Source: Gammaproteobacteria bacterium (GTDB lineage: Bacteria > Pseudomonadota > Gammaproteobacteria > UBA12402). From it: DNA of 64,000 bases. A program made the translations under genes and the position numbers. Positions within the stretch are counted from its first letter, which is position 1. Every line of letters begins with the position of its first letter. The notes under the pieces are model-generated. The model ran no database searches. It worked only from the letters and a program-made list of their open reading frames with translations, and was not told where the DNA came from. Shown here one piece after another: positions 5,046-32,537 of the stretch. The DNA lies in contig JASFHH010000003.1 of assembly GCA_050123335.1 (NCBI GenBank), positions 6,615 to 70,614 on the forward strand. The letters run 5' to 3'.

Positions 5046-5078
5046 TATTGTGCAAGAGATTTATCTCTTGCACAATAA
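5046..5078 (+). terminator. hairpin terminator after groEL
   Basis: Perfect 12-bp stem TTGTGCAAGAGA-ttta-TCTCTTGCACAA about 35 nt after the groEL stop. Confidence 0.5.
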
Positions 5079-5274
5079 AGAACCTGTCGCCTTCAAAATC
5101 GCCCGGCTTTGCCTTTTTTGCAATATCTGCGTTGTAGCATTTTTTGCGAATGCTCATTTATTGTATATAAACTCCGCTTCGCAAAAAATGCTACGCCTTG
5201 ATCTTGCAAAAAATGCTCGTCTGCACCTTTCCTGCAATTTTTTTCGTGCAAAACTTGTGTTAAGGAGGAACAAA

Positions 5275-6051
5275 GTGAGATTTAAAATTATTTTAATTGT
5301 TTTGTGTTTATTGTTAATAGGAGTAGTAGCTCAAGTTTCTGCAAGTACTAACAATGTAAATGGTTTTACTAAGGCGCAACAAGCGCAAATAAAAGTAATT
5401 ATACGTAATTATCTTATTCAAAATCCACAGGTTTTGGTTGAAGCGTCTCAAGCTTTGCAAGAGCAGCAAATGCAAAAATTGCGCCAGGATGCAATCAAAA
5501 ATGCGCGAGTTAATACCGATGCTTTGTTAAGATCTAATAGTCCGGTGGCTGGAGCTTCGCGTGGATCAATCACCATGGTTGCTTTTTTAGATTATCAATG
5601 TCCATTTTGCCGTTTAATGTCTCCAGTATTAAAACGTTTGATAAAAGATAATCCGCAAATGCGAGTTGTTTTTAAAGAGTTCCCGATTCATGGTAAATAT
5701 TCTGTAATGTCGGCTAAGGTTGCTTTGGCTGCTAGTTTGCAAGGTAAATATTGGGAAGTGCATCAAGCGTTAATGAAAGCAAAAATGCCGTTGACTGAGC
5801 AAGAAATTATGGATGTTGCTAAATCAACAGGATTGAATATGAAAAAATTAGCTGTTGATATGCGTAAGCCTTGGGTGAAACAAGAAATTGATGGCGTTTA
5901 TCGTTTAGCTAAAAAATTAAATTTAATTGGAGACCCGTCATTTTTTATTATGAAATCCAACATGACCGATAATTCCAAAGATCAAATTTATTTTATAGCG
6001 GGCTACGTTTCTGAGCAGGAATTGCAAGGTGCGATTAATAAGTTGAAATGA
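5275..6051 (+). CDS. DsbA/Com1-family periplasmic thiol:disulfide oxidoreductase
   Basis: Thioredoxin-type CPFC active site (FLDYQCPFCRL). A GTG at 5275 is preceded by AAGGAGG, and the signal-peptide-like VRFKIILIVLCLLLIGVVAQVSA follows. The ORF-track extension upstream to 5050 is probably non-coding. Confidence 0.7.
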   Translation: MRFKIILIVLCLLLIGVVAQVSASTNNVNGFTKAQQAQIKVIIRNYLIQNPQVLVEASQALQEQQMQKLRQDAIKNARVNTDALLRSNSPVAGASRGSITMVAFLDYQCPFCRLMSPVLKRLIKDNPQMRVVFKEFPIHGKYSVMSAKVALAASLQGKYWEVHQALMKAKMPLTEQEIMDVAKSTGLNMKKLAVDMRKPWVKQEIDGVYRLAKKLNLIGDPSFFIMKSNMTDNSKDQIYFIAGYVSEQELQGAINKLK

Positions 6052-10994: not shown

Positions 10995-11981
10995 TTAAGT
11001 CATAAATTGGCAAACGCGTATACCACTATCATTAAGTTGTAATAATTCAACACGTTCATCTGATTTTTCAGCACACAGTATGATTCCGATAGGTGGATTT
11101 TCGCCAGGTAACATTTCGTATTTTTCAAGCCAGCGCAAATATAATTCTATTTGCCCTTTATCAGCCGGTTTAAATGCTCCCATTTTAAGCTCGATCGCTG
11201 TCATACATTTTAATTGTCTATTGAACATTAATAAATCAATTTTAAAAAAGTCTCCATCAATCTCAATTACTTTTTGTCTTTCTTGGAAAGTAAATCCGGT
11301 GCCCATACTAAGTAGAAATTGTTGGATATCGCTAACAATAGCATCTTCAAACGATCGTTCATCTTCAAATTGTTGATTACTTAGATATTGCAAGATAACA
11401 GGATCCTGCATGATAAAATCTGGTTTTAAAATATCAGTTTTTCTTAGTTTGATAATTTCTTTTTTTATAATTGATTCAGGCTTTTTAGCAATTGCAGTAC
11501 GCTCAAATAGCATACTACTTAGTTTTTCTTTTAATCTGCTGATACTCCAGCGTTCAATACGACACATTTCTGCATAAAATTCTCTTTTCAGCTTATTTTC
11601 AATGTTGAGTAAAAAAACAAAATGCGACCATTTAAGATGATTTGACAAAGATATTACAATTTGTTCATCAGGAAATAATTTTGCGAATTGGATGCATCGA
11701 TAGATAACTCTGCGACCAAAACTGGAGCCAAATTTAATTTGAAGTTTATCAGCAAGAGTGTCGATGATGCCTGCGCCATATTTAGCACGCTCAGAGTCTA
11801 AAATATCATAATTAACACGTTGTCCGATATGCCAATAAAGTAGCACACCTGTTTGGCTTATTTTACGTAAAGTTTGTTGTTGAGTTGATTCTATGAGATT
11901 ACTGATGTCTTTAAATAGCTTATTTGCTGTGTTATTAACATCAGGGCAATCAATGCTAGAGTTGTTCATAATTTTACCCAA
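10995..11981 (-). CDS. yhcG: YhcG-like PDDEXK nuclease (DUF1016 family)
   Basis: MLFERTA, AIELKMGAFKPADKGQIELYLRWLEKYE and GIILCAEKSDERVELLQL all match DUF1016/YhcG signatures. Confidence 0.8.
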   Translation of the reverse strand: MGKIMNNSSIDCPDVNNTANKLFKDISNLIESTQQQTLRKISQTGVLLYWHIGQRVNYDILDSERAKYGAGIIDTLADKLQIKFGSSFGRRVIYRCIQFAKLFPDEQIVISLSNHLKWSHFVFLLNIENKLKREFYAEMCRIERWSISRLKEKLSSMLFERTAIAKKPESIIKKEIIKLRKTDILKPDFIMQDPVILQYLSNQQFEDERSFEDAIVSDIQQFLLSMGTGFTFQERQKVIEIDGDFFKIDLLMFNRQLKCMTAIELKMGAFKPADKGQIELYLRWLEKYEMLPGENPPIGIILCAEKSDERVELLQLNDSGIRVCQFMT

Positions 11982-12421: not shown

Positions 12422-12874
12422 GTGAAAATAATATTATCAATAATATTTGGTATGTCTTGCGCTTTTATAATTAATGTAGGATATGCCGGTACAGTTCCAG
12501 TTAAGTATGTTCAAATTTCTCATTCTAAAATTAAGCCAGTTAAAAAAGATAAATCAGTTCACAAAACTATAGTTAAACCTAAACCTATAATTAAACCGAG
12601 ACCAGTTAAGATTAAGCGAGAGCCTTTTTTTATTATGACCAGTGGTTTTTTGTTACCTAATTTACGTATGTTTGCCAGGAAATTTAATTATCATCTGGTT
12701 TGGAAAGTAATTGATGTTAATACGGGTGAACAAATGGATTATCGATGGATTGGAACACACAAGGTTGTTGGCGCAACATCTTTGGATATTTTACAAAAGA
12801 TATTAAAGCCATATCCGGTTGTAGTTAATGTCTGGAAGACTAATAGAGTGGTTGAAGTTGCAAATGTTGGTTAA
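12422..12874 (+). CDS. small periplasmic protein at the head of the pilus cluster (possible secretin-associated or pilotin-like protein)
   Basis: GTG start after a GGGGGT ribosome-binding site, signal peptide, Lys/Pro-rich linker and conserved-looking C-terminal domain. It sits immediately upstream of the secretin. Confidence 0.4.
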   Translation: MKIILSIIFGMSCAFIINVGYAGTVPVKYVQISHSKIKPVKKDKSVHKTIVKPKPIIKPRPVKIKREPFFIMTSGFLLPNLRMFARKFNYHLVWKVIDVNTGEQMDYRWIGTHKVVGATSLDILQKILKPYPVVVNVWKTNRVVEVANVG

Positions 12875-12919
12875 CCACTGAAAGTTTATCATTACGAAAT
12901 ATTTATTGAGGGGGAAAGT

Positions 12920-14482
12920 ATGCGATCTAAATTTAAACGAATTTTATCTACGGGTATAGTTGCAGCATTTTGCGTAAGTTGTGTAAGTGGTTGTGCCAAC
13001 CAAATACAATTAGCCAAAGAAGCTGATGCAGCCAGTCAGCAGGCACAAGAGAGTATTAATGCTAATTTAGGTGAAATGCAAAATGTGCCAAAACCAGTAC
13101 ATCCTGGTGCAGTATTTAATGTCAAAAATAAAAGTTATGTTGATTTGAAACCAATCAGAATTCCTGCGAAGTGGAAAACTAAGCAGGTAGATATTTATGC
13201 TTCTGATCAGTCAGTTGCAGCAATTGTTGCAGAGATGACTAAAGGCATGGATGTAACTAATATTTTTGAGCCGGAGGTGCGTAATCAATCCATAAGTGTT
13301 GCATATCATGGTAATTTGTATGATGGCTTAAAGCAAATAGCAAGAGATAACAATATTGATTTAAATATTAGTGGTAATGTTAATCATCCAGTTTTTAATT
13401 GGTCGAAATATGAAACACGTACTTTTCAAATAGCATTTTTACCTGGTAATACTAGTTTTGGTATTGGTAATTATTCCAAAGATGGTGGTTCTTCTTCTTC
13501 AGATAGTTCTGATGATTCTGGGAAAACTGCTATATCCAATGGCAGCAACAGTGGTGCTTCTTTGTCTGGGTCGTCATTAAGTGTGTGGAAAGATTTGACC
13601 AGCTCAGTTAAAGGCATGTTATCTCCTCATGGTAAATTATCAGTTAGCCAGGCTTCAAGTTCGATTACGGTTATTGATACACCATATGTAGTTAATAAAA
13701 TTGCTAAGTATATTGATAATTACAATGGTATTTTATCAAAACGTGTTGCAATTAAAGTTAAAATTTTAGAAGTTCAATTAGATAATAATCACGCAAACGG
13801 TATTGATTGGAATGCGGTTTATTCAAGTTTTGGTGCAAAATTCAAGCTTAATGGAGCTTTTGGTAAAAGCGTTGCTAGTAATTTTGCTAAAGCTGTGTCT
13901 TCAGGTATAGGCATTGATGTTGGAAGAGGTCCCTGGAAAGATACCAGTGTCATGATTCAAGCCTTAGATCAGCAAGGTAAAACTACTGTAGTTAATGAGC
14001 CAACCGTAGTGAGTTTAAATAACCAGCCGAATACGATTAGCGTTGGTGAAAATCAAGCTTATGTTAAAAAAACAGATGTTACTTTGGATACGCAAACTCA
14101 TACAATGAGTACAGCATATACACCAGGTAATATAAAAACCGGTCTTGATTTAACTATCATTCCGCATATTCAGGATAATAAAATTTATTTATCTTTGAAT
14201 GCAATTTTATCTACTTTGCAAAGCATTAAAACATTTGGTGGTGATGGTACAGATCAAGATAAAAATTTATCACAAGTGCAATTACCGCAAACAGAAGATC
14301 GAGTGTTTAACCAGCGTATTATGTCACGTAGTGGGCATATGATTGTTTTGAGTGGATTTAAAGTTAAACAAAACTCATCTCAGGAAAATAAAAATTTTGG
14401 CACTAATTTGTTGGGAGGTGATTATGGATTATCTTCAAACGTAGAGCTAGTAGTTTTAATTCAGCCAACTTTAGTGAAATAG
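12920..14482 (+). CDS. lipoprotein secretin (type IVb pilus PilN/BfpB/TcpC-like)
   Basis: Lipobox SGC|ANQ after the signal peptide and a Ser-rich linker (GGSSSSDSSDDSG). The C-terminal secretin-domain pattern is VVNEPTVVSLNNQPNTISVGENQAY ... MSRSGHMIVLSGF. Confidence 0.65.
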   Translation: MRSKFKRILSTGIVAAFCVSCVSGCANQIQLAKEADAASQQAQESINANLGEMQNVPKPVHPGAVFNVKNKSYVDLKPIRIPAKWKTKQVDIYASDQSVAAIVAEMTKGMDVTNIFEPEVRNQSISVAYHGNLYDGLKQIARDNNIDLNISGNVNHPVFNWSKYETRTFQIAFLPGNTSFGIGNYSKDGGSSSSDSSDDSGKTAISNGSNSGASLSGSSLSVWKDLTSSVKGMLSPHGKLSVSQASSSITVIDTPYVVNKIAKYIDNYNGILSKRVAIKVKILEVQLDNNHANGIDWNAVYSSFGAKFKLNGAFGKSVASNFAKAVSSGIGIDVGRGPWKDTSVMIQALDQQGKTTVVNEPTVVSLNNQPNTISVGENQAYVKKTDVTLDTQTHTMSTAYTPGNIKTGLDLTIIPHIQDNKIYLSLNAILSTLQSIKTFGGDGTDQDKNLSQVQLPQTEDRVFNQRIMSRSGHMIVLSGFKVKQNSSQENKNFGTNLLGGDYGLSSNVELVVLIQPTLVK

Positions 14483-14495
14483 CGGGTAATATAAT

Positions 14496-15653
14496 ATGCA
14501 AGCATATTTATACGATATTTACAGTCAAAACGTCGCGGGAAAAAGCAGAAAAGAACTTTCTGATCTGCTATCCCGCGAAAGCGAACAATACAATTATGCT
14601 CTGTTAATTAAAGATCATTTAAGTTTGTCTAAACAAGATGGTATTTCCATTCCGGATGCTTTAATTGATAGTATTGCTGCTAAATCATTCATTTATGTGC
14701 AGCAATTAGCGGATCACCAATATTTCTTAATGGTATACGCTAATGACGCTATTATTTGGGCGGGAAAATTGGCAGAACATGAAATTGCTGGTATGTTGCA
14801 ATTGCATTTACAAACCAATCCAAAAATAAAATTGTTTACGTATAATTACAAAATTTCTGCAGATCTTGCGCACAGGAAAATTATAGAATTCAAACAGGAT
14901 CCTTTAGGTAAAATTAATCTGGAAGATTATCGTCTCAAACAAATTTTTGAAGTTAAACATAATTTAAATAAAAATATTAGATTTGCTTCAGCATTTTTGA
15001 TTATTTTAGTTATTGGGTTAATAATTGGTGGGTTATTTTTATCACATGCTGCAAGAGAACGGTCAGCTATTGCCGCTTGCGAAAAAGCTGCAGCAATGGA
15101 TGTATGGAAAAATTATCGACAAGAATTCAATCAACCACGCGCGTATGTATCAATTAAAGATATTGTTAGCAAATTACACCAAATATCTACAATACAAAAT
15201 TTTGCAGTTAGAGATTTTAAATGTGATGGCTCGAGTTTACAAGTGGATTTAGTTGCGTTTGGTGGTTCAGTAGTGGGTTTGGAAAAGTGGGCAGTGAAAA
15301 ATCAGTATAATTTACGTATTGTTAGTAATACTTACAAATTATCAAAATCGTTGGATATTCAGTCTCAAGAGTCACCGTTCACTATCATGGCAGCAGATGA
15401 TGTGTTAGCTCACGTGATTGATGCTGCTGGTATTTTAGGTAAAGACGTTGCAGTTGAAGTGGGAGATGTAGCGCAAAGTAATAATTATAAAGAGATTAAT
15501 TTGAGTGTGAATTTACAAAATCAGCCGGTCAATTTTATACAAAATTTGTTTAAGATTTTGCAAAAATATCCGGTGGAATTGGTGAGTATAGAAGGAGACT
15601 ATGCTTTAAATAATTTTAGTGGGGAAGTTAAGTTAAAAATTATTGGAGAGTAA
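14496..15653 (+). CDS. bitopic inner-membrane pilus assembly protein (PilO/BfpC-like)
   Basis: About 165 aa cytoplasmic domain, a single TM (FASAFLIILVIGLIIGGLFL) and about 200 aa periplasmic domain. Its position between the secretin and the ATPase matches the R64 pilN-pilO order. Confidence 0.4.
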   Translation: MQAYLYDIYSQNVAGKSRKELSDLLSRESEQYNYALLIKDHLSLSKQDGISIPDALIDSIAAKSFIYVQQLADHQYFLMVYANDAIIWAGKLAEHEIAGMLQLHLQTNPKIKLFTYNYKISADLAHRKIIEFKQDPLGKINLEDYRLKQIFEVKHNLNKNIRFASAFLIILVIGLIIGGLFLSHAARERSAIAACEKAAAMDVWKNYRQEFNQPRAYVSIKDIVSKLHQISTIQNFAVRDFKCDGSSLQVDLVAFGGSVVGLEKWAVKNQYNLRIVSNTYKLSKSLDIQSQESPFTIMAADDVLAHVIDAAGILGKDVAVEVGDVAQSNNYKEINLSVNLQNQPVNFIQNLFKILQKYPVELVSIEGDYALNNFSGEVKLKIIGE

Positions 15654-15655
15654 TC

Positions 15656-16384
15656 GTGAATAAATCTAATCGAAAACCAATGGTTAACAAAAAGTTAGCA
15701 ATTTTTAGTGTAATATTTTTAGTGATATGTGCTGGTGCATGGATCATGTTGGTGGGCAACCCTTTTGATAGTATATCTACTAGCAGTGTTTCATCGACAA
15801 AAGCACAAGTAGCTGTGTCAGCAAAACCTGCTCCTCGAGAGATAGATGTGCCAAAGTTAGAGGTAGATAATGCAGCTAAACCAGATTCTAATTTAATTAA
15901 GTTTAAATCATATTTGCAGCATGTAATTACCAATGATAAGAAACTTTCTAAACAGGATAAAAATGCTTATTTAGCTTATGTAGAGCAAATCAATAAATTT
16001 GTTGAACAAAAAACGCAAGCTGCAAAAGATATTCAACAATTGCAGCAATTAAGTGAGGAATATCGCATTAAGACATTACAAAGTCAGGTTTTAGAGCAGG
16101 AAAGCAAAATTTCTGCAGCCAAAGCTTCAATTCAAAGTGATCAATTCAAAGCTGCACAAGCATTAGGTTTGCCTGCGCAACAAATGGTGCAACAAGTTGA
16201 TCATGTTACCATGATTTATGGCAATGGTGGGAAATTGCAAGCTGATGTAGTAATTGATGGTGTTAAATATACCGGAAAAAGCATAGGGGATGCAATTAAT
16301 AATTATAAAATAGCAGGAATTCAATCTAATCAAGTTACATTATTAGATTCGAAGATACATAAAACAAAAATATTAGATTTGTAA
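15656..16384 (+). CDS. periplasmic coiled-coil pilus assembly protein (PilP-like)
   Basis: N-terminal TM anchor and Gln-rich coiled-coil; its position in the cluster is the main evidence. Confidence 0.35.
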   Translation: MNKSNRKPMVNKKLAIFSVIFLVICAGAWIMLVGNPFDSISTSSVSSTKAQVAVSAKPAPREIDVPKLEVDNAAKPDSNLIKFKSYLQHVITNDKKLSKQDKNAYLAYVEQINKFVEQKTQAAKDIQQLQQLSEEYRIKTLQSQVLEQESKISAAKASIQSDQFKAAQALGLPAQQMVQQVDHVTMIYGNGGKLQADVVIDGVKYTGKSIGDAINNYKIAGIQSNQVTLLDSKIHKTKILDL

Positions 16385-16398
16385 AAAAAATATTTGGT

Positions 16399-16518
16399 GG
16401 CGATTATCAGAGATTTTGGGTGGCTTTTTTCGACGACTAGCTCCCATGGATGGAAGAGCGGGAGGCACATGGATGTGCCAGGGAGGAGAAAAAAGACACA
16501 CAAAAACTCATAATCGCC
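16399..16518. repeat. palindromic element family B (copy B1, inverted orientation) inside the pilus operon
   Basis: Core TTTTTTCGACGACTAGCTCCCATGGATGGAAGAGCGGGAGGCACATGGATGTGCCAGGGAGGAGAAAAAAG flanked by the outer inverted repeat GGCGATTAT... Sits between the PilP-like gene and the ATPase gene. Confidence 0.6.
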
Positions 16519-16555
16519 AGAAATAAAAAGTTTGTAAATTATAAGGTAAAAATTT

Positions 16556-18217
16556 ATGGCAACAAACAGTTACGAACAATTACAAAAATATGCCGAGTTG
16601 CTGAATGCTAAGGTACTGTTGGATGCTTCAGAAATTAATGCTCAGGTAGATAAAAATATTAGTTTACATTGGGCAGCTAATAAAGAAGATATTGTAGTAT
16701 TGGTTAATGGCGATATTTTGATTTCTGATCCAGCGTCACCTAGTCTTTATGAATGCAAAACTTATTTTAAAACTCATGGCTTAACTCAAGGCGAGGTATA
16801 CTTTACTACTTTAGCGGTAGTTAAAGAATTGCGTGAGCGCGCCGCAGATGTGAGTGCAGTTGTTGCAAACGAAGACAAAACTATTGGTGAAAAACAATTG
16901 ATGGATTTAATTCGTTTGGCAATCGAACAAAATGCTTCAGATATTCACATGTTTATTGGTAGAACCAGATGTAAAATTCATTTTCGTGTAGATGGTTTGT
17001 TGATGCCGATTACTGATTGGCCGGCTGATCAAGGCATTAGAATACATAATGTAGCGTATAACTTTGTAGCGCAAGATAAGTCAGATAACTTTAATCGTAC
17101 TAAGCCGCAGGATACTTCTTTTACTTTGCATCTACAAGGTAAAGGTGATGTGCGAATTCGTTCGTCAAATATTCCAACTAATAATGGCGGTTGTAATATT
17201 GTTTATCGTATCCTTTCGATTGGTCAAAAAGATGTGGTACCAATTGAAAATCTTGGTTATACCAAAGCGCAAGAAAAACTATTAGAAGAAATTAAACATT
17301 TATCCAGCGGATTGGTGCTGTTTTGTGGTGAAACCGGTAGTGGTAAAACCACATCATTAGCTAGTGTGCTGGCTGGAATTGATCCCAGAAGAAAAGTTTA
17401 CAGCATTGAGGATCCAGTAGAAAAATTAGTGCCGAATGTTATTCAAATTCCGGTAGATACAAAAGACAAGTCAAAAAGTTTTGCTTATTATTTACGGGCA
17501 TTATTGCGTCAAGATCCGAATGTTATCATGGTGGGAGAAATTCGTGATTTGGAAACCGCAAAAGTAGCGATGCAAAGTGCATTGACTGGCCACTTGATTT
17601 TATCAACTTTGCATACGCGTTACGCGGTGGATTCGGTTTTGCGTTTAAATGAATTTGGTATGTCACCAAAAATTTTAGCCACACCAAATTTATTAAAATT
17701 GATTGTAGCACAGGAATTGCATCCAAAATTATGTCCATTATGTCGCAGACCTTTGATGTCTGAAGAAAAACAACAGTTATTAGGTTTGTATAAGAAGAGT
17801 GAGATGGAAGAGATGTTTACCGTGCCATTAAAAAAAGAAATTAATCCGGATTGTCCAGTTTGTGGCGGTAAAGGTATTGCCGGACGTAAAGTATATGCAG
17901 AGATGGTTAAAGTTGATCAGCGAGCACATGATTTTATTGCGGATGTAGACATTAAAGGATGGCGTGCGCATTTGCAAGAATGTGGTTTTGTAACTTTAAA
18001 TGAAAGGGTGCGAAATGCGATTAAGCGTGGTGAAATTGATGCTTTAGGAGTTACGCGTGATCCGGTTGAAGTAGCTGCTTATTCTTATCGCGAACAATTA
18101 CAAGTTGATCCAAGTTTTAGTTCGGTAGACCGAAAGGTTAAGTTTTTTAATGCACAAAATAATTCGCAAGAAAAAATAAATAGCCGATTAAATTCGGCCA
18201 GTATATTACGTAGGTAA
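16556..18217 (+). CDS. GspE/PilB-family secretion ATPase
   Basis: Walker A GETGSGKTT, Walker B VIMVGEIRD, and the tetracysteine CPLCRRP ... CPVCGG that is typical of assembly ATPases and absent from PilT. Confidence 0.9.
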   Translation: MATNSYEQLQKYAELLNAKVLLDASEINAQVDKNISLHWAANKEDIVVLVNGDILISDPASPSLYECKTYFKTHGLTQGEVYFTTLAVVKELRERAADVSAVVANEDKTIGEKQLMDLIRLAIEQNASDIHMFIGRTRCKIHFRVDGLLMPITDWPADQGIRIHNVAYNFVAQDKSDNFNRTKPQDTSFTLHLQGKGDVRIRSSNIPTNNGGCNIVYRILSIGQKDVVPIENLGYTKAQEKLLEEIKHLSSGLVLFCGETGSGKTTSLASVLAGIDPRRKVYSIEDPVEKLVPNVIQIPVDTKDKSKSFAYYLRALLRQDPNVIMVGEIRDLETAKVAMQSALTGHLILSTLHTRYAVDSVLRLNEFGMSPKILATPNLLKLIVAQELHPKLCPLCRRPLMSEEKQQLLGLYKKSEMEEMFTVPLKKEINPDCPVCGGKGIAGRKVYAEMVKVDQRAHDFIADVDIKGWRAHLQECGFVTLNERVRNAIKRGEIDALGVTRDPVEVAAYSYREQLQVDPSFSSVDRKVKFFNAQNNSQEKINSRLNSASILRR

Positions 18218-18221
18218 ATAA

Positions 18222-19265
18222 ATGAGTTTGTTTGAACGTATACAATTATTTTTATTTAAGAAGCAGTTTAACAATACTAAACGGCAGGAATTGTTAATTC
18301 AATTATCTTTTTTGTTGAAAGCAAACGTTCCGCCGTCAGATGCTTTGTACCACATGCAGCAGATTTACTTTGATAACAAAAATCTTTTGATGCATGCGGT
18401 AGTAACAGATATGTTAGATAATATTAGAGCTGGTAAAAAAATCGGTGACAATATGACGGATTGGTTTCCGTATGAAGTATGTCGCGTGTTATCGATTTCA
18501 GAAGAAAGAGGTTTTTTGCTGCAAGGTGTAGAGAATCTAATTAAATACTTTGATACAGGTCGTAACGCTTTAAAAGCACTTACCGGAATTATACCAGGCT
18601 TGGCTTATTTTATTGTGATTTTAGTGTTTATTGCGTTTACTGGTGCGAAGTTATTGCCAAGTTTAGGAACGATGGTAAAAGATTGGCCGGCAATTTCAAT
18701 GGCATTAAATAAATCTGGTATGTTTTTGTATCACAATTATTACTTCATATTGGCAATTGTGGTTTTGTTAATTGTTTGGGTGATTATCGCACTGCGAGAT
18801 TATTCTGGAAAAATTTATCAACTAATTGCTAAACCATTAGTGCCTACTTATAAATTGCAAGCATCGCTTTTATTATTTAAATCATTATCAATGTTAACAG
18901 GTAATGGTGTTGCGGTATCAGATGCCATTAAAATGTTGTTGCTAAATCGTACGCATGGTTTTGTTTATCGGCATCTTTCGGAGATGTTTTATCGGGTTAG
19001 ACGTGGTGAAAATATAGGAAATATGCTTGATACGGGTATTTTTACGCGTAGTCAGATAGCGCACCTTAAAGTAATTAGCCGTTATTGTTCGGAGGCTGAG
19101 TACTCAAAGGTATTTGCGCTTATGGGAGAGCAAACTAGCCACGATCTTAGCAGGCGGATGAAAATATTTTCAAAAATTATGAATTTTATTTTCATTGCTT
19201 TAACTGCCGTTGGGGTAGTTTGGGTCTACGGTGCATATGCACTGTTAGTATCTTCAATAACTTAG
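18222..19265 (+). CDS. GspF/PilC-family inner-membrane platform protein
   Basis: 347 aa polytopic membrane protein immediately after the ATPase. Its size fits BfpE/PilR-type platforms. Confidence 0.7.
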   Translation: MSLFERIQLFLFKKQFNNTKRQELLIQLSFLLKANVPPSDALYHMQQIYFDNKNLLMHAVVTDMLDNIRAGKKIGDNMTDWFPYEVCRVLSISEERGFLLQGVENLIKYFDTGRNALKALTGIIPGLAYFIVILVFIAFTGAKLLPSLGTMVKDWPAISMALNKSGMFLYHNYYFILAIVVLLIVWVIIALRDYSGKIYQLIAKPLVPTYKLQASLLLFKSLSMLTGNGVAVSDAIKMLLLNRTHGFVYRHLSEMFYRVRRGENIGNMLDTGIFTRSQIAHLKVISRYCSEAEYSKVFALMGEQTSHDLSRRMKIFSKIMNFIFIALTAVGVVWVYGAYALLVSSIT

Positions 19266-19280
19266 AAAGGGGAGGAGTCA

Positions 19281-19751
19281 ATGTTAAATAACTTTCTAAA
19301 AAAACGTAAGTCTGAACAAGGCTTTACTTTAGTTGAGTTCTTGGTTGTGTTAGGACTTATTTTTGTGTTGGTTGCAGTTATTGCAATGGCTGCATATAAA
19401 TCAACTCAGCGTACTCGTATTTCAAAGGTTAAAAGTGAAGTTATGAGTATCGTTGCTGCTGCACAGAATTGGGCTTCTAATAAACCAACCATGTTTAAAA
19501 ACATGACGTTTAAGGATTTAGAGAACTCAGATCTTGTAAGTAAAGATTTGGTTAATAGTAATTACCAGGATCCGTGGGGTGGAGTTTATGAACTAACACC
19601 AGCAGGAAATGGTGGTTCTTTTACAGTTACTATTAATGGAGTGCCTAATAAGTCAATAGCACAAGACTTAGCTGATAACTTGCGTCCAGCGAGTTTAAAT
19701 CAGGATAGTTCTGTAGCTGCTGATGACAACGTAAAGGTAACTTTCAGATAA
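19281..19751 (+). CDS. prepilin-type major (pseudo)pilin
   Basis: Leader MLNNFLKKRKSEQG, then mature FTLVEFLVVLGLIFVLVAVIAMAAY with Glu5. GGGGAGGAG ribosome-binding site. First pilin after the platform gene. Confidence 0.75.
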   Translation: MLNNFLKKRKSEQGFTLVEFLVVLGLIFVLVAVIAMAAYKSTQRTRISKVKSEVMSIVAAAQNWASNKPTMFKNMTFKDLENSDLVSKDLVNSNYQDPWGGVYELTPAGNGGSFTVTINGVPNKSIAQDLADNLRPASLNQDSSVAADDNVKVTFR

Positions 19752-19757
19752 TGTATA

Positions 19758-19824
19758 GGGGCCGGGTCTTTACTTATTACAAGTGCCCTGTCAGTTGCTT
19801 TGTAATAAGTAAAGACCCGGCCCC
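19758..19824. repeat. palindromic element family A (copy A1) acting as a hairpin terminator after the major pilin gene
   Basis: GGGGCCGGGTCTTTACTTATTACAAGTGC-loop-GCTTTGTAATAAGTAAAGACCCGGCCCC. Starts 7 nt after the pilin stop and ends 4 nt before the next ATG. Confidence 0.65.
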
Positions 19825-19827
19825 ATA

Positions 19828-20313
19828 ATGGAGCTAAACGTGAATAAAATGAAAAAGCACAAAGGTTTTACTTTAGTTGAATTGTTATTAGTGATGGCGA
19901 TTTGTGCGTCGTTGACCGCAGTGGTTTATACTGCTTGGCATAATATTCAAGTAAGGTTAGATCTGCAAAAAGTTCAATCGCAGGTAAATATAATAGTTGA
20001 TGTTGCCAGAGCTTGGCGTAATGCAAAAACTTCATATCAAGGGATTTCTATGAGTCCTGATGATAAAGATTCTCTTTGTAATGATAATCTATTGCCAAAA
20101 GATATGTGTGTTGCGGGTTTTGTAAATCCATGGGGTGGTCAGTATCGTGTTAGTGTGTCTGCAAAATATGGTGATAATAATTTTGATGTTACTTTAACTG
20201 ACATTACTAACTCAGAAATACGAAATGCGATCAAATTAATTTTATTAAAAAGCACTTTAGGACAAGACAGTATTCAAATAGAGAGAGACAAAATAATTGC
20301 GACGTTTAATTAA
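19828..20313 (+). CDS. prepilin-type minor pilin
   Basis: The leader ends in G, followed by FTLVELLLVMAICASL with Glu5. The alternative start at 19849 gives a short MKKHKG leader. Confidence 0.7.
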   Translation: MELNVNKMKKHKGFTLVELLLVMAICASLTAVVYTAWHNIQVRLDLQKVQSQVNIIVDVARAWRNAKTSYQGISMSPDDKDSLCNDNLLPKDMCVAGFVNPWGGQYRVSVSAKYGDNNFDVTLTDITNSEIRNAIKLILLKSTLGQDSIQIERDKIIATFN

Positions 20314-20818
20314 ACACAAAATAAAATATGAAGCAGCATTTACGATGATTGAAATGTTAATATCGCTGGCTGCTATTGGGATTTTATTTGCTATATTAAT
20401 AGTGGCTGCGCACCAAGCTTTTAACGTGCCGGCAGAACGGTCGAGTTTGATGAGTTGTAAAAATAATTTAATACAGGCGTTAAATGCTTATTATTTGAAT
20501 AATTATCATCAGTTGCACCATACAACTCAGCCGGTAGCAATTGATAATTTGGTTGCGCAACATTATTTGGATAAAGATAGTTTGTATAATATTGGACAGT
20601 TTAAATATACGGCTGGTGTGCGAGTAGTGGATACTCACGATCGGTTAGAGTTAGCTATTACAACTGATGATGCTAACAGTTTGGTATGGATGAAGCCGGA
20701 TAAAATAGATGGCAATAGGGCAATTTGGTATGTAGTACCGCAGTATGGTGATACGGCTAATTCGATAAGATATAACGCGGTGCAATTGGCTCGGGAGAAT
20801 GATAATGACAAAATGTAA
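20297..20818 (+). CDS. prepilin-type minor pilin
   Basis: ...KYEAA|FTMIEMLISLAAIGILFAIL has Ala rather than Gly at -1 and keeps Glu5. Overlaps the previous gene. Confidence 0.6.
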   Translation: MRRLIKHKIKYEAAFTMIEMLISLAAIGILFAILIVAAHQAFNVPAERSSLMSCKNNLIQALNAYYLNNYHQLHHTTQPVAIDNLVAQHYLDKDSLYNIGQFKYTAGVRVVDTHDRLELAITTDDANSLVWMKPDKIDGNRAIWYVVPQYGDTANSIRYNAVQLARENDNDKM

Positions 20819-21572
20819 TGTAAACAAACAACGTGGCTTTATTATGATCCAAGTGTTGTTGGGTTTAGCGGTGTTAATTGCGATCATGACGGGTTGGGCT
20901 TATTACCAGAATCGTGTGCATAAACGAGCGGTTGCTAATCGCATGACTAACGAAATTAATTATATTTTAGAAGCAGCAACTTCATATTACAGTGATCATA
21001 ATAAGTGGCCTGAGAGAATGGCCGATTTAATTAACGCGGGATATATAGATCGGCAAACTAAAGGCAGTGATGAAATTTTAGATCCGTATGGACAAAAATA
21101 TGTGTTAGACAATTCGCAGGGGGGCAAATTATATCTGCTTGCTTATATTCCAGAAGATGATGCGTATGTAGCGCGTAACGCCATGACAGCGTTGCCATTT
21201 GCTAAATTTGATCCAGATGGAGCATCTGCTCCGCAAGGATATGATGTATTACAAGCGGCGGTAATGCCTTATGGGCATGGTGGAATTGTAAAAAATGCTA
21301 CGATAGTTCCTTCAGGCACAATTATTGACAAGCCGATTTGTCCCAAGGATGAAAAAGCAAAAATTTATACTAGTGTAGCTTCGGGCGTTGAAAAAGATGG
21401 GTCTTTTGTGGGAGGTTATCGTACTTATGCTGATAATTTAGAGGATGAACATAAATGGAAAGTGCATATGCAAGTATTAACCAATGGAGGTTGGGTGGAT
21501 GCTGATAAAGATTCAGATGCTTATAAAATAGAGGTGTTTACAACATGTCAAAAAACAAATTCAGATTTTTGA
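20799..21572 (+). CDS. prepilin-type minor pilin lacking Glu5 (GspK/PilV-like large minor pilin)
   Basis: ...NKQRG|FIMIQVLLGLAVLIAIM has Gln at +5. At 257 aa it is the largest pilin in the cluster. Confidence 0.6.
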   Translation: MIMTKCNVNKQRGFIMIQVLLGLAVLIAIMTGWAYYQNRVHKRAVANRMTNEINYILEAATSYYSDHNKWPERMADLINAGYIDRQTKGSDEILDPYGQKYVLDNSQGGKLYLLAYIPEDDAYVARNAMTALPFAKFDPDGASAPQGYDVLQAAVMPYGHGGIVKNATIVPSGTIIDKPICPKDEKAKIYTSVASGVEKDGSFVGGYRTYADNLEDEHKWKVHMQVLTNGGWVDADKDSDAYKIEVFTTCQKTNSDF

Positions 21573-21958
21573 TGGCTAAAATTATTGTAATGTTATATTT
21601 GATTGCCAATATATTTGGTATTACTAATGTTTTTGCTGATGATGCTACTTCATATGGTAATATTTCAGTAAATACTCATATCAGGAGGGAGTTGGTAGCA
21701 ATTTATAAGCATGTTGATTTAAGCACGACGCGTTCTATTCCTATGCCAAATTGTAGTTCTGGCGGAGTCCCAGAAATTCTTCCTATAGTGTCAGATAATA
21801 TTATAAATTATTATCAAGGTCCTTTTAAAGCTCAAGATGAAAGTTATGATCTTGCTGTTCAGAGTGTAGGTAAAGTTTGGCTCGTATCGACTAAAATGCA
21901 AAATGGTATTCATTGGTATGCAAATTATGCGGTGTATTGTCGTTATACTCCTAAATAA
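21545..21958 (+). CDS. small secreted protein, last gene of the pilus cluster
   Basis: Signal peptide FLMAKIIVMLYLIANIFGITNVFA; overlaps the preceding pilin gene. Confidence 0.35.
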   Translation: MSKNKFRFLMAKIIVMLYLIANIFGITNVFADDATSYGNISVNTHIRRELVAIYKHVDLSTTRSIPMPNCSSGGVPEILPIVSDNIINYYQGPFKAQDESYDLAVQSVGKVWLVSTKMQNGIHWYANYAVYCRYTPK

Positions 21959-22676: not shown

Positions 22677-22737
22677 GGGGCCGGGTCTTTACTTATTACA
22701 AGTGCGATAGCTTTGTAATTAGTAAAGACCCGGTCCC
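22677..22737. repeat. palindromic element family A (copy A2)
   Basis: GGGGCCGGGTCTTTACTTATTACAAGTGC...GTAATTAGTAAAGACCCGGTCCC, followed by the associated ATGTAAAGCTCACGACCCG segment. Confidence 0.65.
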
Positions 22738-22839: not shown

Positions 22840-23220
22840 ATGTACAAAAAGTTTATGTGGATATTGGTAATATTAGTTTTAATTCCATTGACATCATCTG
22901 CGATTTGGCAAATTGCTGATCCAGCTCATGGAACTGGACGTCGTTATGAGCATGGTGTTGATTATCCGCAGCAATATGTTAATGGCGCTATTATTTCATT
23001 TAAATTACGCAAGGGTTTGCTTAAAGAGAATGTGTTTCGTATAGCTTGCAAATATCGTTGGAAAGTTAGATGGCTTGCGCCAAATAAATATTATGTAACA
23101 CTTGCTACCAAGATAGTTGGACCAACTTTTCCGATTGTAATGAATGGACTGTTGTCACATTATCCGCTACGTGCAACTTATGATATAAAATATAAGCGTA
23201 TGAGGGTATATAAACGCTAA
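22840..23220 (+). CDS. small secreted hypothetical protein
   Basis: Signal-peptide-like MYKKFMWILVILVLIPLTSSA; 126 aa. Confidence 0.35.
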   Translation: MYKKFMWILVILVLIPLTSSAIWQIADPAHGTGRRYEHGVDYPQQYVNGAIISFKLRKGLLKENVFRIACKYRWKVRWLAPNKYYVTLATKIVGPTFPIVMNGLLSHYPLRATYDIKYKRMRVYKR

Positions 23221-31525: not shown

Positions 31526-32005
31526 ATGATCAGGTTGTCTTTTAAACAAGTATATTTCGTTAGTTTTTTAGTAGCATGCATGTTTATCGGTTTTACGATA
31601 TTTATTCAGAGTTGGCAGGTGTTATTACCTTGTCCGTTGTTGCATATTGAGAGAATTATTATGGGGTTATTGGCGTTAATTTTTTTGATTATTGCATTGT
31701 ATAATCACACCATATTAAGTAGAAAAATTTGGAGTTGGTCGGCGTGCGCGATTAGTTTGTTGGGTGCGCTGGTTGCGGGAAGGCATGTTTGGCTGCAGGA
31801 GTTTTCTACGGGAGAAGTTAGTCTTAATGGTTTTGCGGAGCAGTCGCCACAATCTTCGTTTGTACATTATTTACATCAGGCAGTTAACTCATCATTATGT
31901 GTCCAAGTACAGTGGTCAATTTTAGGTATTAGCTTGGCTGGCTGGACTTTGATTTTATTTATTTTGTTTGCGGGATTGTGTGTTTGGCAGCGTAATCGGA
32001 AATAA
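31526..32005 (+). CDS. DsbB-like four-TM membrane protein with degenerate first Cys pair
   Basis: Four TM segments, about 160 aa. LLPCPLLHIER aligns with E. coli DsbB KPCVLCIYER, but the second Cys is Leu (codon TTG). The second periplasmic loop has a single Cys. Confidence 0.45.
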   Translation: MIRLSFKQVYFVSFLVACMFIGFTIFIQSWQVLLPCPLLHIERIIMGLLALIFLIIALYNHTILSRKIWSWSACAISLLGALVAGRHVWLQEFSTGEVSLNGFAEQSPQSSFVHYLHQAVNSSLCVQVQWSILGISLAGWTLILFILFAGLCVWQRNRK

Positions 32006-32446: not shown

Positions 32447-32537
32447 GTCGGGTCGCGAGCTTTACATAATTTTTATGGGGCCGGGTCTTTACTAATTACA
32501 AAGCTACCGCACTTGTAATTAGTAAAGACCCGGCCCC
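32447..32537. repeat. palindromic element family A (copy A3) with its associated segment
   Basis: GTCGGGTCGCGAGCTTTACAT followed by GGGGCCGGGTCTTTACTAATTACAAAGC...GTAATTAGTAAAGACCCGGCCCC. Ends at the CaCA antiporter stop on the minus strand. Confidence 0.65.

Follow-up and report, generated by a model that had tools for sequence, protein, structure and literature searches.

A 64,000-nt stretch of DNA from a Gammaproteobacteria bacterium of the UBA12402 lineage (contig JASFHH010000003.1, positions 6,615 to 70,614; hereafter, the window) carries, at 12422-21958, a gene cluster that encodes four tandem prepilins together with a secretin, an extension ATPase and a platform protein. We conclude that this cluster is probably a vertically inherited, chromosomal pilus operon of the type IVb class, which combines features of the R64 PilN type with features of the bundle-forming pilus (BFP) of enteropathogenic Escherichia coli (EPEC). 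A first-pass annotation had pointed out that the third prepilin has Ala at position -1 relative to the cleavage site and that the fourth lacks the Glu at position +5 (Glu5), and had read one major plus three minor pilins, one of them without Glu5, as the pattern of a type II secretion system (T2SS) pseudopilus. Both residues are indeed present, but they are conserved, lineage-specific, tolerated variants and not signs of a T2SS pseudopilus, so that the result corrects a tempting over-reading of a pseudopilus from signal-peptide features. We judge the operon to be a divergent member of the type IVb class, new as a member, with features that reviews already accept.

Four tandem prepilins and their signal peptides

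The open reading frame (ORF) listing and the raw sequence confirmed the four tandem prepilins claimed by the first-pass annotation: four consecutive ORFs on the + strand span exactly 19281-21572, and each has a class III signal peptide at its N-terminus. These genes, the one that follows them and a stem-loop within the array are as follows (a slash marks the cleavage site):

19281..19751, + strand: pilin 1, probable major pilin; leader of 14 aa, MLNNFLKKRKSEQG/FTLVEF
19758..19824, no strand assigned: stem-loop, perfect over 25 bp, between pilin 1 and pilin 2
19849..20313 (ORF from 19828), + strand: pilin 2, PilS-like paralogue of pilin 1; leader of 6 aa, (MELNVNK)MKKHKG/FTLVEL
20297..20818, + strand: pilin 3, small minor pilin; leader of 14 aa from a TTG start, MRRLIKHKIKYEAA/FTMIEM (EAA/F)
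20805..21572 (ORF from 20799), + strand: pilin 4, bimodular minor pilin; leader of 11 aa, (MI)MTKCNVNKQRG/FIMIQV
21545..21958, + strand: ORF5, 137 aa; Sec-type signal peptide; 28-nt overlap with the end of pilin 4

Cleavage is predicted at G/F in pilins 1, 2 and 4 and at A/F in pilin 3, and residue +5 is Glu in pilins 1-3 and Gln in pilin 4. No choice of start codon removes Ala(-1) or Gln5, because both sit within the conserved motif, and this part of the first-pass annotation held up against the alternative-start test. Its leader lengths, 13-14 residues or 6 with alternative starts, fit pilins 1 and 3 (14 each) and pilin 2, where 6 is favoured over 13, but not pilin 4, whose leader has 11 residues instead of 13. 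Pilin 1 has a GGAGG Shine-Dalgarno sequence 5 nt 5' of its ATG. The longest ORF of pilin 2 begins at ATG 19828 and would give the 13-residue leader, whereas the Met at 19849 gives the 6-residue one; the orthologues in two related loci, L001 (from an NCBI metagenome-assembled genome, MAG) and L003, both begin at the Met equivalent to 19849 (MKKHKG and MRKQKG), and in L003 a GGAG lies 6 nt 5' of it. Three observations back ATG 20805 as the start of pilin 4: its Met is conserved, GGGAG lies 7 nt 5' of it, and the protein recorded at NCBI is 255 aa long.

For pilin 3, TTG 20297 is the sole in-frame start 5' of the motif and yields a 17-nt overlap with the end of pilin 2; L003 has the same TTG and overlap, with the leader MQVLIRKQRA/FTVIEL. 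A start at the internal Met17 (MIEML...), as placed by two gene callers (P0007, P0011), was rejected: the basic leader and the [AG]-F-T motif are conserved in five orthologues, and the arrangement of TTG and overlap recurs in L003. For pilin 3, a TTG start and Ala(-1) may be neutral variants or may reduce its abundance. Pilins 1, 2 and 3 score 23.8, 33.1 and 22.2 bits against Pfam N_methyl, all above the gathering threshold of 21.2 bits, and pilin 4 falls below it because Gln5 breaks the motif. Pilins 3 and 4 overlap by 14 nt and, given the other overlaps, pilins 2-4 and ORF5 therefore appear to form a translationally coupled, co-translated module, as in bfpI-J-K-L. In public annotation these genes are labelled "type II secretion system protein" and "PulG", names that are generic and mislead.

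Both atypical residues recur in relatives. Word-indexed searches returned six close relatives of pilin 4 (among 5.8 billion clustered proteins) and six of pilin 3. The sequence G/FIMIQVLLGL is found in all seven pilin 4 orthologues (that of the window and the six relatives), at identities down to 45%. An exhaustive profile search added 454 more distant relatives of pilin 4, and residues were tallied over the best 148 of these and the six close relatives, 154 proteins in all, 143 of which have a recognisable signal peptide. Among the 143, position -1 is Gly in 141 and Ala in 2, position +1 is Phe in 101, and position +5 is Glu in 118, Asp in 9 and Gln in 8, six of the last being the window's own clade; leaders are mostly 5-12 residues long. 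The next relatives of pilin 4 outward, P0013 and P0014, have Glu5, as does the full-length homologue (hhalign probability 99.4%) in L009, a sister cluster with the same layout (four pilins, then a 142-aa ORF) and an ATPase 48% identical to that of the window. In L009, position -1 is Gly and position +5 is Glu throughout the four pilins, and position +1 reads Tyr, Trp, Tyr, Phe. The Ala(-1) of pilin 3 was correctly read from EAA/FTMIEM and is shared by orthologues: it is present in the window, P0008, P0009, P0010 and L003, with Gly in P0012 and in the third pilins of the sister clusters L009 and L007.

Ala(-1) and Gln5 are derived, lineage-specific states: the L009 pilins have Gly(-1) and Glu5, P0013 and P0014 have Glu5, and Gly and Ala interchange within pilin 3. 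Since the sister cluster's fourth pilin has Glu5, Gln5 is a substitution of recent date, not an ancestral trait of the GspK type. The ratio of nonsynonymous to synonymous substitution rates (dN/dS) for the four pilin genes is 0.02-0.25 against L001 and 0.17-0.34 against L003, and the genes are thus under purifying selection, not decaying.

The literature leaves room for such variants. According to a 2023 review of type 4 filaments, the leader always terminates in Gly or Ala, Glu5 is frequent but not universal, leader length does not discriminate type IVa from type IVb, and a Glu5-less subunit caps tip complexes (PMC10191384); an older review from that group still described Gly as invariant in bacteria (PMC4471445). 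Given this shift from an invariant Gly to an allowed Ala, and the 2 cases among 143 here, Ala(-1) is uncommon but accepted variation. The TXSScan study let the type IVa pilin profile, which sometimes fits type IVb systems better, be exchanged for the type IVb one, and treated the prepilin peptidase as mandatory but allowed as a loner gene elsewhere in the genome (PMC6668835). Short leaders with Phe1, Ala(-1) and a Glu5-less minor pilin do not separate a secretion pseudopilus from a pilus.

Relationships of the pilins and ORF5

The major pilin of a type IVb system classically has a long leader, a residue other than Phe at +1 and a head of the PilS/BfpA/TcpA type. Pilins 1 and 2, which are paralogues with 32% identity, have type IVa-like signal peptides (leaders of 6-14 aa across the cluster, Phe1) and BfpA/PilS-like heads, which bears out the first-pass observation of type IVa- or pseudopilin-like sites within a cluster bearing type IVb features. 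We aligned the pilins with a panel of BfpA, BfpI, BfpJ, BfpK and BfpL, E. coli GspG-K, and PilS and PilV of an IncI plasmid and a Hydrogenophaga plasmid. The best match of the joint profile of pilins 1 and 2 was BfpA, at 44.1 bits over the full length and 21.6 bits without the N-terminal helix, versus 29.0 and 3.1 bits for GspG. Without the helix, none of GspG-K exceeded 3.9 bits against the profiles of pilins 1/2 and pilin 3, so that this part of the panel spoke against the pseudopilus while the type IVb part, with BfpA at the top for the pilin 1/2 head, spoke for a pilus. In a PDB profile search, pilin 1 matched BfpA (1zwt) over the head (E 9.8e-4); against Pfam PilS (cutoff 22), pilin 1 falls just under at 20.8 bits and pilin 2 passes at 23.0. 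Pilin 1 is the first pilin gene 3' of the platform gene and is followed by the stem-loop. It is probably the major subunit, because of its BfpA/PilS-like head, its strong ribosome-binding site and the stem-loop that sets it off from the downstream genes.

RNA folding gave the stem-loop -48.5 kcal/mol (z -8.8), and stem-loops of unrelated sequence occupy the same spacer in L001 (-66.7) and L003 (-22.6). We rejected an intrinsic terminator, as the structure has no T-run and is a dispersed repeat; it is at most an mRNA-stabilising or attenuating element. Intergenic copies of the palindrome GGGGCCGGGTCTTTACTTA...TAAGTAAAGACCCGGCCCC occur at 19758-19824, 22677-22737, 32477-32537 and 59627-59645, with seven half-sites observed and none expected by chance, and the spacer between pilins 1 and 2 in L001 holds a related but different palindrome, GGGGTCGGGGCATCACTCATTACAT. 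The element looks like a REP- or MITE-like (repetitive extragenic palindromic or miniature inverted-repeat transposable element) repeat family of the lineage.

Pilin 3 scores 19.9 bits against TIGR02532, above the cutoff of 16.3, and its head is not detectably similar to anything. Its AlphaFold2 (AF2) model has a long alpha-1 helix and four strands. We take its pilin fold from the order of these secondary-structure elements, because the model is weak (predicted local distance difference test, pLDDT, 67) and has no fold match.

The AF2 model of pilin 4 (pLDDT 74) comprises a helix at residues 8-67, an alpha/beta pilin domain and a beta-rich C-terminal domain, the last bracketed by C181 and C250, which are invariant among the seven orthologues. 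The profile of these orthologues matches P0026, P0033, P0039 and P0044 (E 1e-13 to 6e-11), which are Shufflon_N (PilV) proteins above the Pfam cutoff, and the match lies within their last 75-95 residues, C-terminal to the Shufflon_N region. In hhalign, the same profile matched residues 275-349 of P0026 at 98.7% probability, an E-value of 2.5e-16 and 35% identity, in an alignment that pairs both Cys. When the profile was that of the wider family, Shufflon_N members included, and the helix was removed, two PilV proteins scored 36.8 and 24.8 bits and GspK -1.6, and Shufflon_N (PF04917) was found in 14 of the 60 best distant relatives of pilin 4 (best E 2.9e-28). The link to PilV surfaced only via the exhaustive profile search; hhalign of the orthologue profile against the single IncI and Hydrogenophaga PilV sequences was not significant. 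The top Foldseek matches in the PDB were the minor pilins TcpB and CofB, though weak (E 5.6e-3). There is no set of inverted repeats at the 3' end of pilin 4, and no recombinase (Rci) among the ORFs scanned. As judged from these alignments, pilin 4 is best viewed as a tip pilin related to PilV but lacking a shufflon, and it is probably a tip adhesin, because it shares a homologous C-terminal domain with PilV (Shufflon_N) minor pilins. A profile search of genome contigs with the pilin 4 family returned a single species representative, the same MAG as L001. The window also encodes a DsbA-like thioredoxin-fold protein (5050-6051, judged by eye from the translation) and DsbB (31526-32005, Pfam DsbB 7.2e-20), which could form the C181-C250 disulfide of pilin 4 and that of ORF5.

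ORF5 retains a signal peptide, two Cys and an aromatic C-terminus, and has no match to a Pfam family. Its position is that of bfpL 3' of bfpIJK, and a similar-sized gene stands there in L001 (10783-11196), L003 (8755-9165) and L009 (13986-14414). It evolves fast, with a dN/dS of 0.59 against L001 and 24% identity to the L003 protein, and the L009 protein at this position has no detectable similarity to it. A motif common to ORF5 and the C-terminal domain of pilin 4, I-P-x-P-x-C-x-x-G-x-P-x-I, scored a non-significant 8-12 bits (family hidden Markov model searched against four sequences), and hhalign of ORF5 against this domain was not significant either (probability 1.8%), so that we regard the motif as no more than a lead.

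Operon machinery, genomic setting and known counterparts

The operon comprises eleven co-directional genes, with several overlaps and a widest intergenic gap of about 170 nt, so that the extension ATPase, the platform protein and all pilin genes lie within one unit. The six genes upstream of the pilins are:

12422..12874, + strand: small exported protein at the operon head, with a weak TcpQ/PilL-like C-terminal domain (assigned from homologues and position)
12920..14482, + strand: outer-membrane secretin, a lipoprotein closest to the PilN family (Pfam, NCBIfam, lipobox-like VSGC)
14496..15653, + strand: 385-aa protein in the PilO/BfpC position (assigned from position and size only)
15656..16384, + strand: PilP-like protein (TIGR03021, pilP_fam, E 5.9e-5, 24.1 bits, below the 34.65 cutoff)
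16556..18217, + strand: extension ATPase of the PilB/GspE/PilQ superfamily (Pfam T2SSE 3.5e-80)
18222..19265, + strand: inner-membrane platform protein of the GspF/PilC/PilR family (Pfam T2SSF 1.7e-12, in two stretches)

Homologues of the first gene hold the same position in L001, L007, L008 and L009; two of five match Pfam TcpQ (best E 4.8e-4), and the window copy has no Pfam match. The secretin matches Pfam Secretin (8.7e-14) and Secretin_N_2 (4.9e-6, passing the cutoff), and its best model is TIGR02520, the PilN family of type IVB secretins (6e-68; 229.6 bits, below the 287.65 cutoff), followed by MshL (125 bits) and GspD (62 bits, 3.4e-17, cutoff 351). Its N-terminus, ...AAFCVSCVSGC, ends in the lipobox-like VSGC from which we read its lipoprotein status, and tblastn against plasmids found PilN genes of conjugative plasmids at 28-32% identity. 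The 385-aa protein has no Pfam or NCBIfam match and is conserved in L001, L003, L007, L008 and L009. The ATPase has no match to T2SSE_N (the GspE N-domain, which binds GspL) in Pfam and scores 242.7 bits against the GspE model (cutoff 630); its identity to the type IVb ATPases of the IncI and Hydrogenophaga plasmids is 29%, and its clade consists of about 13 metagenomic relatives at 46-51% identity, beyond which there are only generic GspE/PilB cores. Among the operon proteins, Pfam and NCBIfam found no GspC, GspL or GspM, and the cluster has neither a lytic transglycosylase nor a retraction ATPase. No Peptidase_A24 was found among the scanned ORFs (the cluster, its neighbours and most larger ORFs of the 64-kb window) or in the clusters of L001, L003, L007 and L009. 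The short leaders with Phe1, the substrate form of housekeeping type IVa/T2SS peptidases, fit an operon without a peptidase of its own, and the peptidase-less clusters may explain these PilD-compatible features.

The operon is flanked by gmhB upstream and an M50 peptidase gene downstream, as it is in L001 and L003, and synteny is kept in relatives down to 58-80% protein identity. The GC content of the region is uniform with its surroundings, and among the scanned ORFs of the 64-kb window there is no tRNA, integrase, relaxase, type IV secretion system (T4SS), shufflon/Rci or other conjugation gene. The shared housekeeping flanks, the even GC content and this lack of tRNA, integrase and conjugation genes thus argue for a vertically inherited chromosomal operon. 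In three genomes, each of the eleven genes has an intact reading frame. Two observations concern its periphery. Beyond the divergent M50 peptidase gene lies a gene for a 126-aa exported protein (22840-23220, + strand), syntenic in L001 (12106-12486) and L003 (9918-10307) and weakly similar to the TcpQ-like C-terminal domain of the first operon gene (BLASTP E 0.08; hhalign E 0.0026, probability 11.5%), which may be a second secretin-associated protein. In L008 (10535-12769), whose ATPase is 51% identical, prfB stands directly 3' of the platform gene and the cluster has no pilin genes; the pilins of that genome are therefore elsewhere or lost.

The gene order of secretin, PilO-position protein, PilP, ATPase, platform protein and pilins is collinear with R64 pilL-V. 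R64/IncI systems also share the secretin type (nearest to the PilN family, with Secretin_N_2 and the lipobox-like VSGC) and a large minor pilin in last place, the C-terminal module of which is homologous to PilV-family (Shufflon_N) proteins. In contrast to them, the window operon lacks PilM, PilT (lytic transglycosylase), PilU (peptidase), a shufflon and Rci, is chromosomal with housekeeping flanks, and has two extra pilins and ORF5, with an ATPase at 29% identity. IncI PilS and PilV have long leaders and no Glu5 (G/IEMLS, G/IDLIG), unlike the short leaders, Phe1 and Glu5 of the window. The PilS and PilV genes compared are those of the IncI plasmid pAVS0968-C (L004 14047-14652 and 15796-17244), where the cleavage positions are inferred from sequence only. 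Classical R64-type pilins therefore stray further from the canonical motif than those of the window.

BFP likewise has one major pilin, three minor ones (BfpI, BfpJ, BfpK) and a small protein (BfpL); its four final genes overlap or abut one another, and at its operon head a small protein precedes a lipoprotein secretin, the order being collinear with bfpG-B-C-U-D-E...I-J-K-L; its BfpA is closest to the pilin 1/2 head. It differs in that all Bfp pilins read G/LSLIE with Glu5, in encoding a peptidase (BfpP), a retraction ATPase (BfpF) and a lytic transglycosylase (BfpH) of its own, in the lack of detectable homology of BfpI, BfpJ, BfpK and BfpL to pilin 3, pilin 4 and ORF5, and in its ATPase, as BfpD (94.9 bits) is a more distant relative than GspE (175.9 bits).

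Two further groups bear on pilin 4. TcpB and CofB, the minor pilins of the toxin-coregulated pilus (TCP) and of CFA/III (colonization factor antigen III), are bimodular too, with a pilin domain followed by a beta-rich C-terminal domain, and are its weak top fold matches; yet they keep Glu5, each is the sole minor pilin of its system and forms a homotrimer (PMC13533445), and no significant sequence match links them to pilin 4 (6mic, E 0.8). With GspK, PilX and PilK, pilin 4 shares its place as the largest minor pilin and the last of the minor pilin block, the lack of Glu5, and a non-pilin gene that comes after it, as in pilVWXY1 and mshDOPQ (PMC13533445). There is no sequence similarity to this group (-1.6 bits) and no Pfam or NCBIfam match to GspK, and Glu5 is said to be always absent in PilK homologues, whereas the homologues of pilin 4 outside its clade keep it (118/143). 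The first-pass analogy with GspK thus stands as far as the largest pilin, lacking Glu5, fits the apical-pilin rule; kinship with GspK is not borne out. The 2026 study cited above also describes BFP as encoding PilIJK-like minor pilins, in contrast to the single homotrimeric minor pilin of TCP and CFA/III, and a protein encoded just 3' of the minor pilin genes as donating a strand that completes the sheet of the apical pilin (PMC13533445).

Proposed assembly and alternative readings

We propose that the prepilins insert in the inner membrane and that a PilD-type peptidase encoded elsewhere would cut them after Gly(-1) (pilins 1, 2 and 4) or Ala(-1) (pilin 3). A low-abundance module of pilins 2-4, to which ORF5 may belong, could then prime assembly and form the tip, with pilin 4 at the apex, capping the filament and presenting its PilV-type domain, and pilin 1 would polymerise beneath, powered by the ATPase and the platform protein, the fibre leaving through the PilN-type secretin. 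Replacement of Glu5 by Gln would be tolerated in pilin 4 because, as the first subunit in, it has none above it whose N-terminal amine needs Glu5. In Vibrio cholerae, E5Q and E5V variants of TcpB restore piliation and prime assembly, with retraction-dependent functions impaired (PMC5207764), and a fixed Gln5 would by this token predict incorporation at the tip only. The function is most likely adhesion to a host or surface via the tip domain of pilin 4.

Several points weigh against a type IVb-class pilus of this kind. Every type IVb NCBIfam match is under its trusted cutoff, the core of the ATPase is as near to GspE/PilB (35-40% over about 62% of the length) as to R64-type PilQ (29%), and hhalign gave no significant match of the PilO-position family to IncI PilO2 or of the TcpQ-like family to IncI PilL. 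Pilin 4 has no match to Shufflon_N (PF04917) or any other Pfam family, its link to PilV being one of the C-terminal module only. The structural models are of moderate or low confidence (pLDDT 74 for pilin 4 and 67 for pilin 3), and Foldseek found no meaningful PDB match for that of pilin 3 (best E about 1). Pilin 2 could be a second major pilin. Moreover, the major and minor status of the pilins, the tip location, the peptidase encoded elsewhere and the adhesive function are all points that we infer.

A more specific form of the proposed pilus, which we hold to be doubtful, has a heteromeric I-J-K-style tip of pilins 2-4 in place of a TcpB-type homotrimer, ORF5 as a PilY1/MshQ-like partner provided in trans or as tip cargo, and a Gln5-locked apical adhesin on a non-retractile, PilD-dependent adhesive pilus. 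If true, the operon would be a natural E5Q experiment, in which an apical PilV-like adhesin cannot re-enter the fibre and trigger TcpB-type self-retraction.

It is unlikely, though compatible with a type IVb pilus as an add-on, that the system also exports ORF5, as a TcpF/CofJ-like factor or a PilY1/MshQ-like tip partner that would dock on the tip of pilin 4 and leave with it via the secretin. The Sec signal peptide and the 28-nt overlap with pilin 4 would suit such a role, as would the similar-sized genes in L001, L003 and L009 and the fast evolution (dN/dS 0.59), which is as in exposed proteins. TCP and CFA/III secrete operon-encoded TcpF and CofJ via the minor pilin tip (PMC9565799, PMC6048534), and in other type IV filaments the apical pilin receives a strand from proteins encoded just 3' of the minor pilin genes (PMC13533445). 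Yet ORF5 has no homology to TcpF, CofJ, BfpL or PilY1, its L009 counterpart has no detectable similarity to it, and the weak motif similarity with pilin 4 (I-P-x-P-x-C-x-x-G-x-P, 8-12 bits) was not supported by a significant hhalign result. Furthermore, TCP with an E5Q tip pilin secretes TcpF poorly (PMC5207764), and the natural Gln5 therefore argues against a TcpB-type piston.

A short T2SS-like secretion pseudopilus, composed of a major pilin and compressed H/I/J/K components, with pilin 4 as the GspK equivalent, and acting as a piston that exports periplasmic proteins instead of an adhesive fibre, is very unlikely. The short leaders followed by F(T/I)(L/M)(V/I)(E/Q) are pseudopilin-like, the next-best ATPase relatives in the word-indexed search are GspE proteins, no retraction ATPase is encoded in the operon, and one minor pilin lacks Glu5. 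The weak partial NCBIfam matches to GspG and GspH (28 and 27.6 bits) would point the same way but, like all matches to the GspG-K families, are largely restricted to the N-terminal helix and far below cutoffs. By contrast, GspC, GspL and GspM are absent from the operon proteins, the secretin has Secretin_N_2 instead of the N0-N3 domains of GspD and tops with the PilN family rather than GspD, the ATPase is without T2SSE_N, the pilin 1/2 head is BfpA-like and not GspG-like, and the pilin 4 family, without the helix, favours PilV (24.8-36.8 bits) over GspK. The orthologous fourth pilin of the sister cluster has Glu5, and the layout of one major and three minor pilins that had suggested a pseudopilus is found as well in BFP, a genuine type IVb pilus.

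We consider highly improbable a thin pilus that stabilises mating pairs for an integrated conjugative element, along the lines of R64/IncI PilV pili or the type IVb pilus of PAPI-1: the nearest annotated secretins are indeed PilN proteins of conjugative plasmids and the C-terminal module of pilin 4 is common to PilV-family proteins, but the scanned ORFs of the window include no relaxase, T4SS, integrase, tRNA or shufflon/Rci, the flanks are housekeeping genes with synteny kept at 58-80% protein identity, and the GC content is uniform. That Ala(-1), Gln5 and the TTG start are degenerative traits of a non-functional pilus operon in a host-restricted bacterium is scarcely credible, since, although the cluster lacks a peptidase, a lytic transglycosylase and a retraction ATPase and the organism is probably host-associated (F-box/RCC1 protein, described below), all eleven genes have intact reading frames in three genomes, every component but ORF5 has a dN/dS of 0.02-0.34, Gln5 is invariant across orthologues diverged to 45% identity, and both substitutions are known to be tolerated (PMC10191384, PMC5207764).

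As a type IVb-class pilus operon, the cluster and its relatives document a small clade of type IVb-like operons, as yet uncharacterised, on the chromosomes of gammaproteobacteria that are uncultured and probably host-associated. The clade mixes R64-like parts (PilN-type secretin, PilV-type tip module) with BFP-like ones (BfpA-like major pilin, three minor pilins and a small protein). In a single family, fourth pilins with Glu5 (sister cluster L009 and the more distant P0013 and P0014) and with Gln5 (all of the window's clade) offer a clean natural comparison for the role of Glu5 in a tip pilin.

Two other genes of the window deserve mention. Between gmhB and the pilus operon, 10995-11981 (- strand) encodes a DUF1016/YhcG nuclease of the PD-(D/E)XK type that is absent at the L001 junction and is therefore a small lineage-specific insertion adjoining the operon. 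Farther away, 43118-44737 (- strand) encodes a protein of 539 aa in which an F-box precedes six RCC1 repeats (Pfam RCC1 6.8e-69, F-box-like 1.1e-7); this eukaryote-like architecture is typically that of effectors from intracellular bacteria, Legionellales among them, and suggests a host-associated lifestyle.

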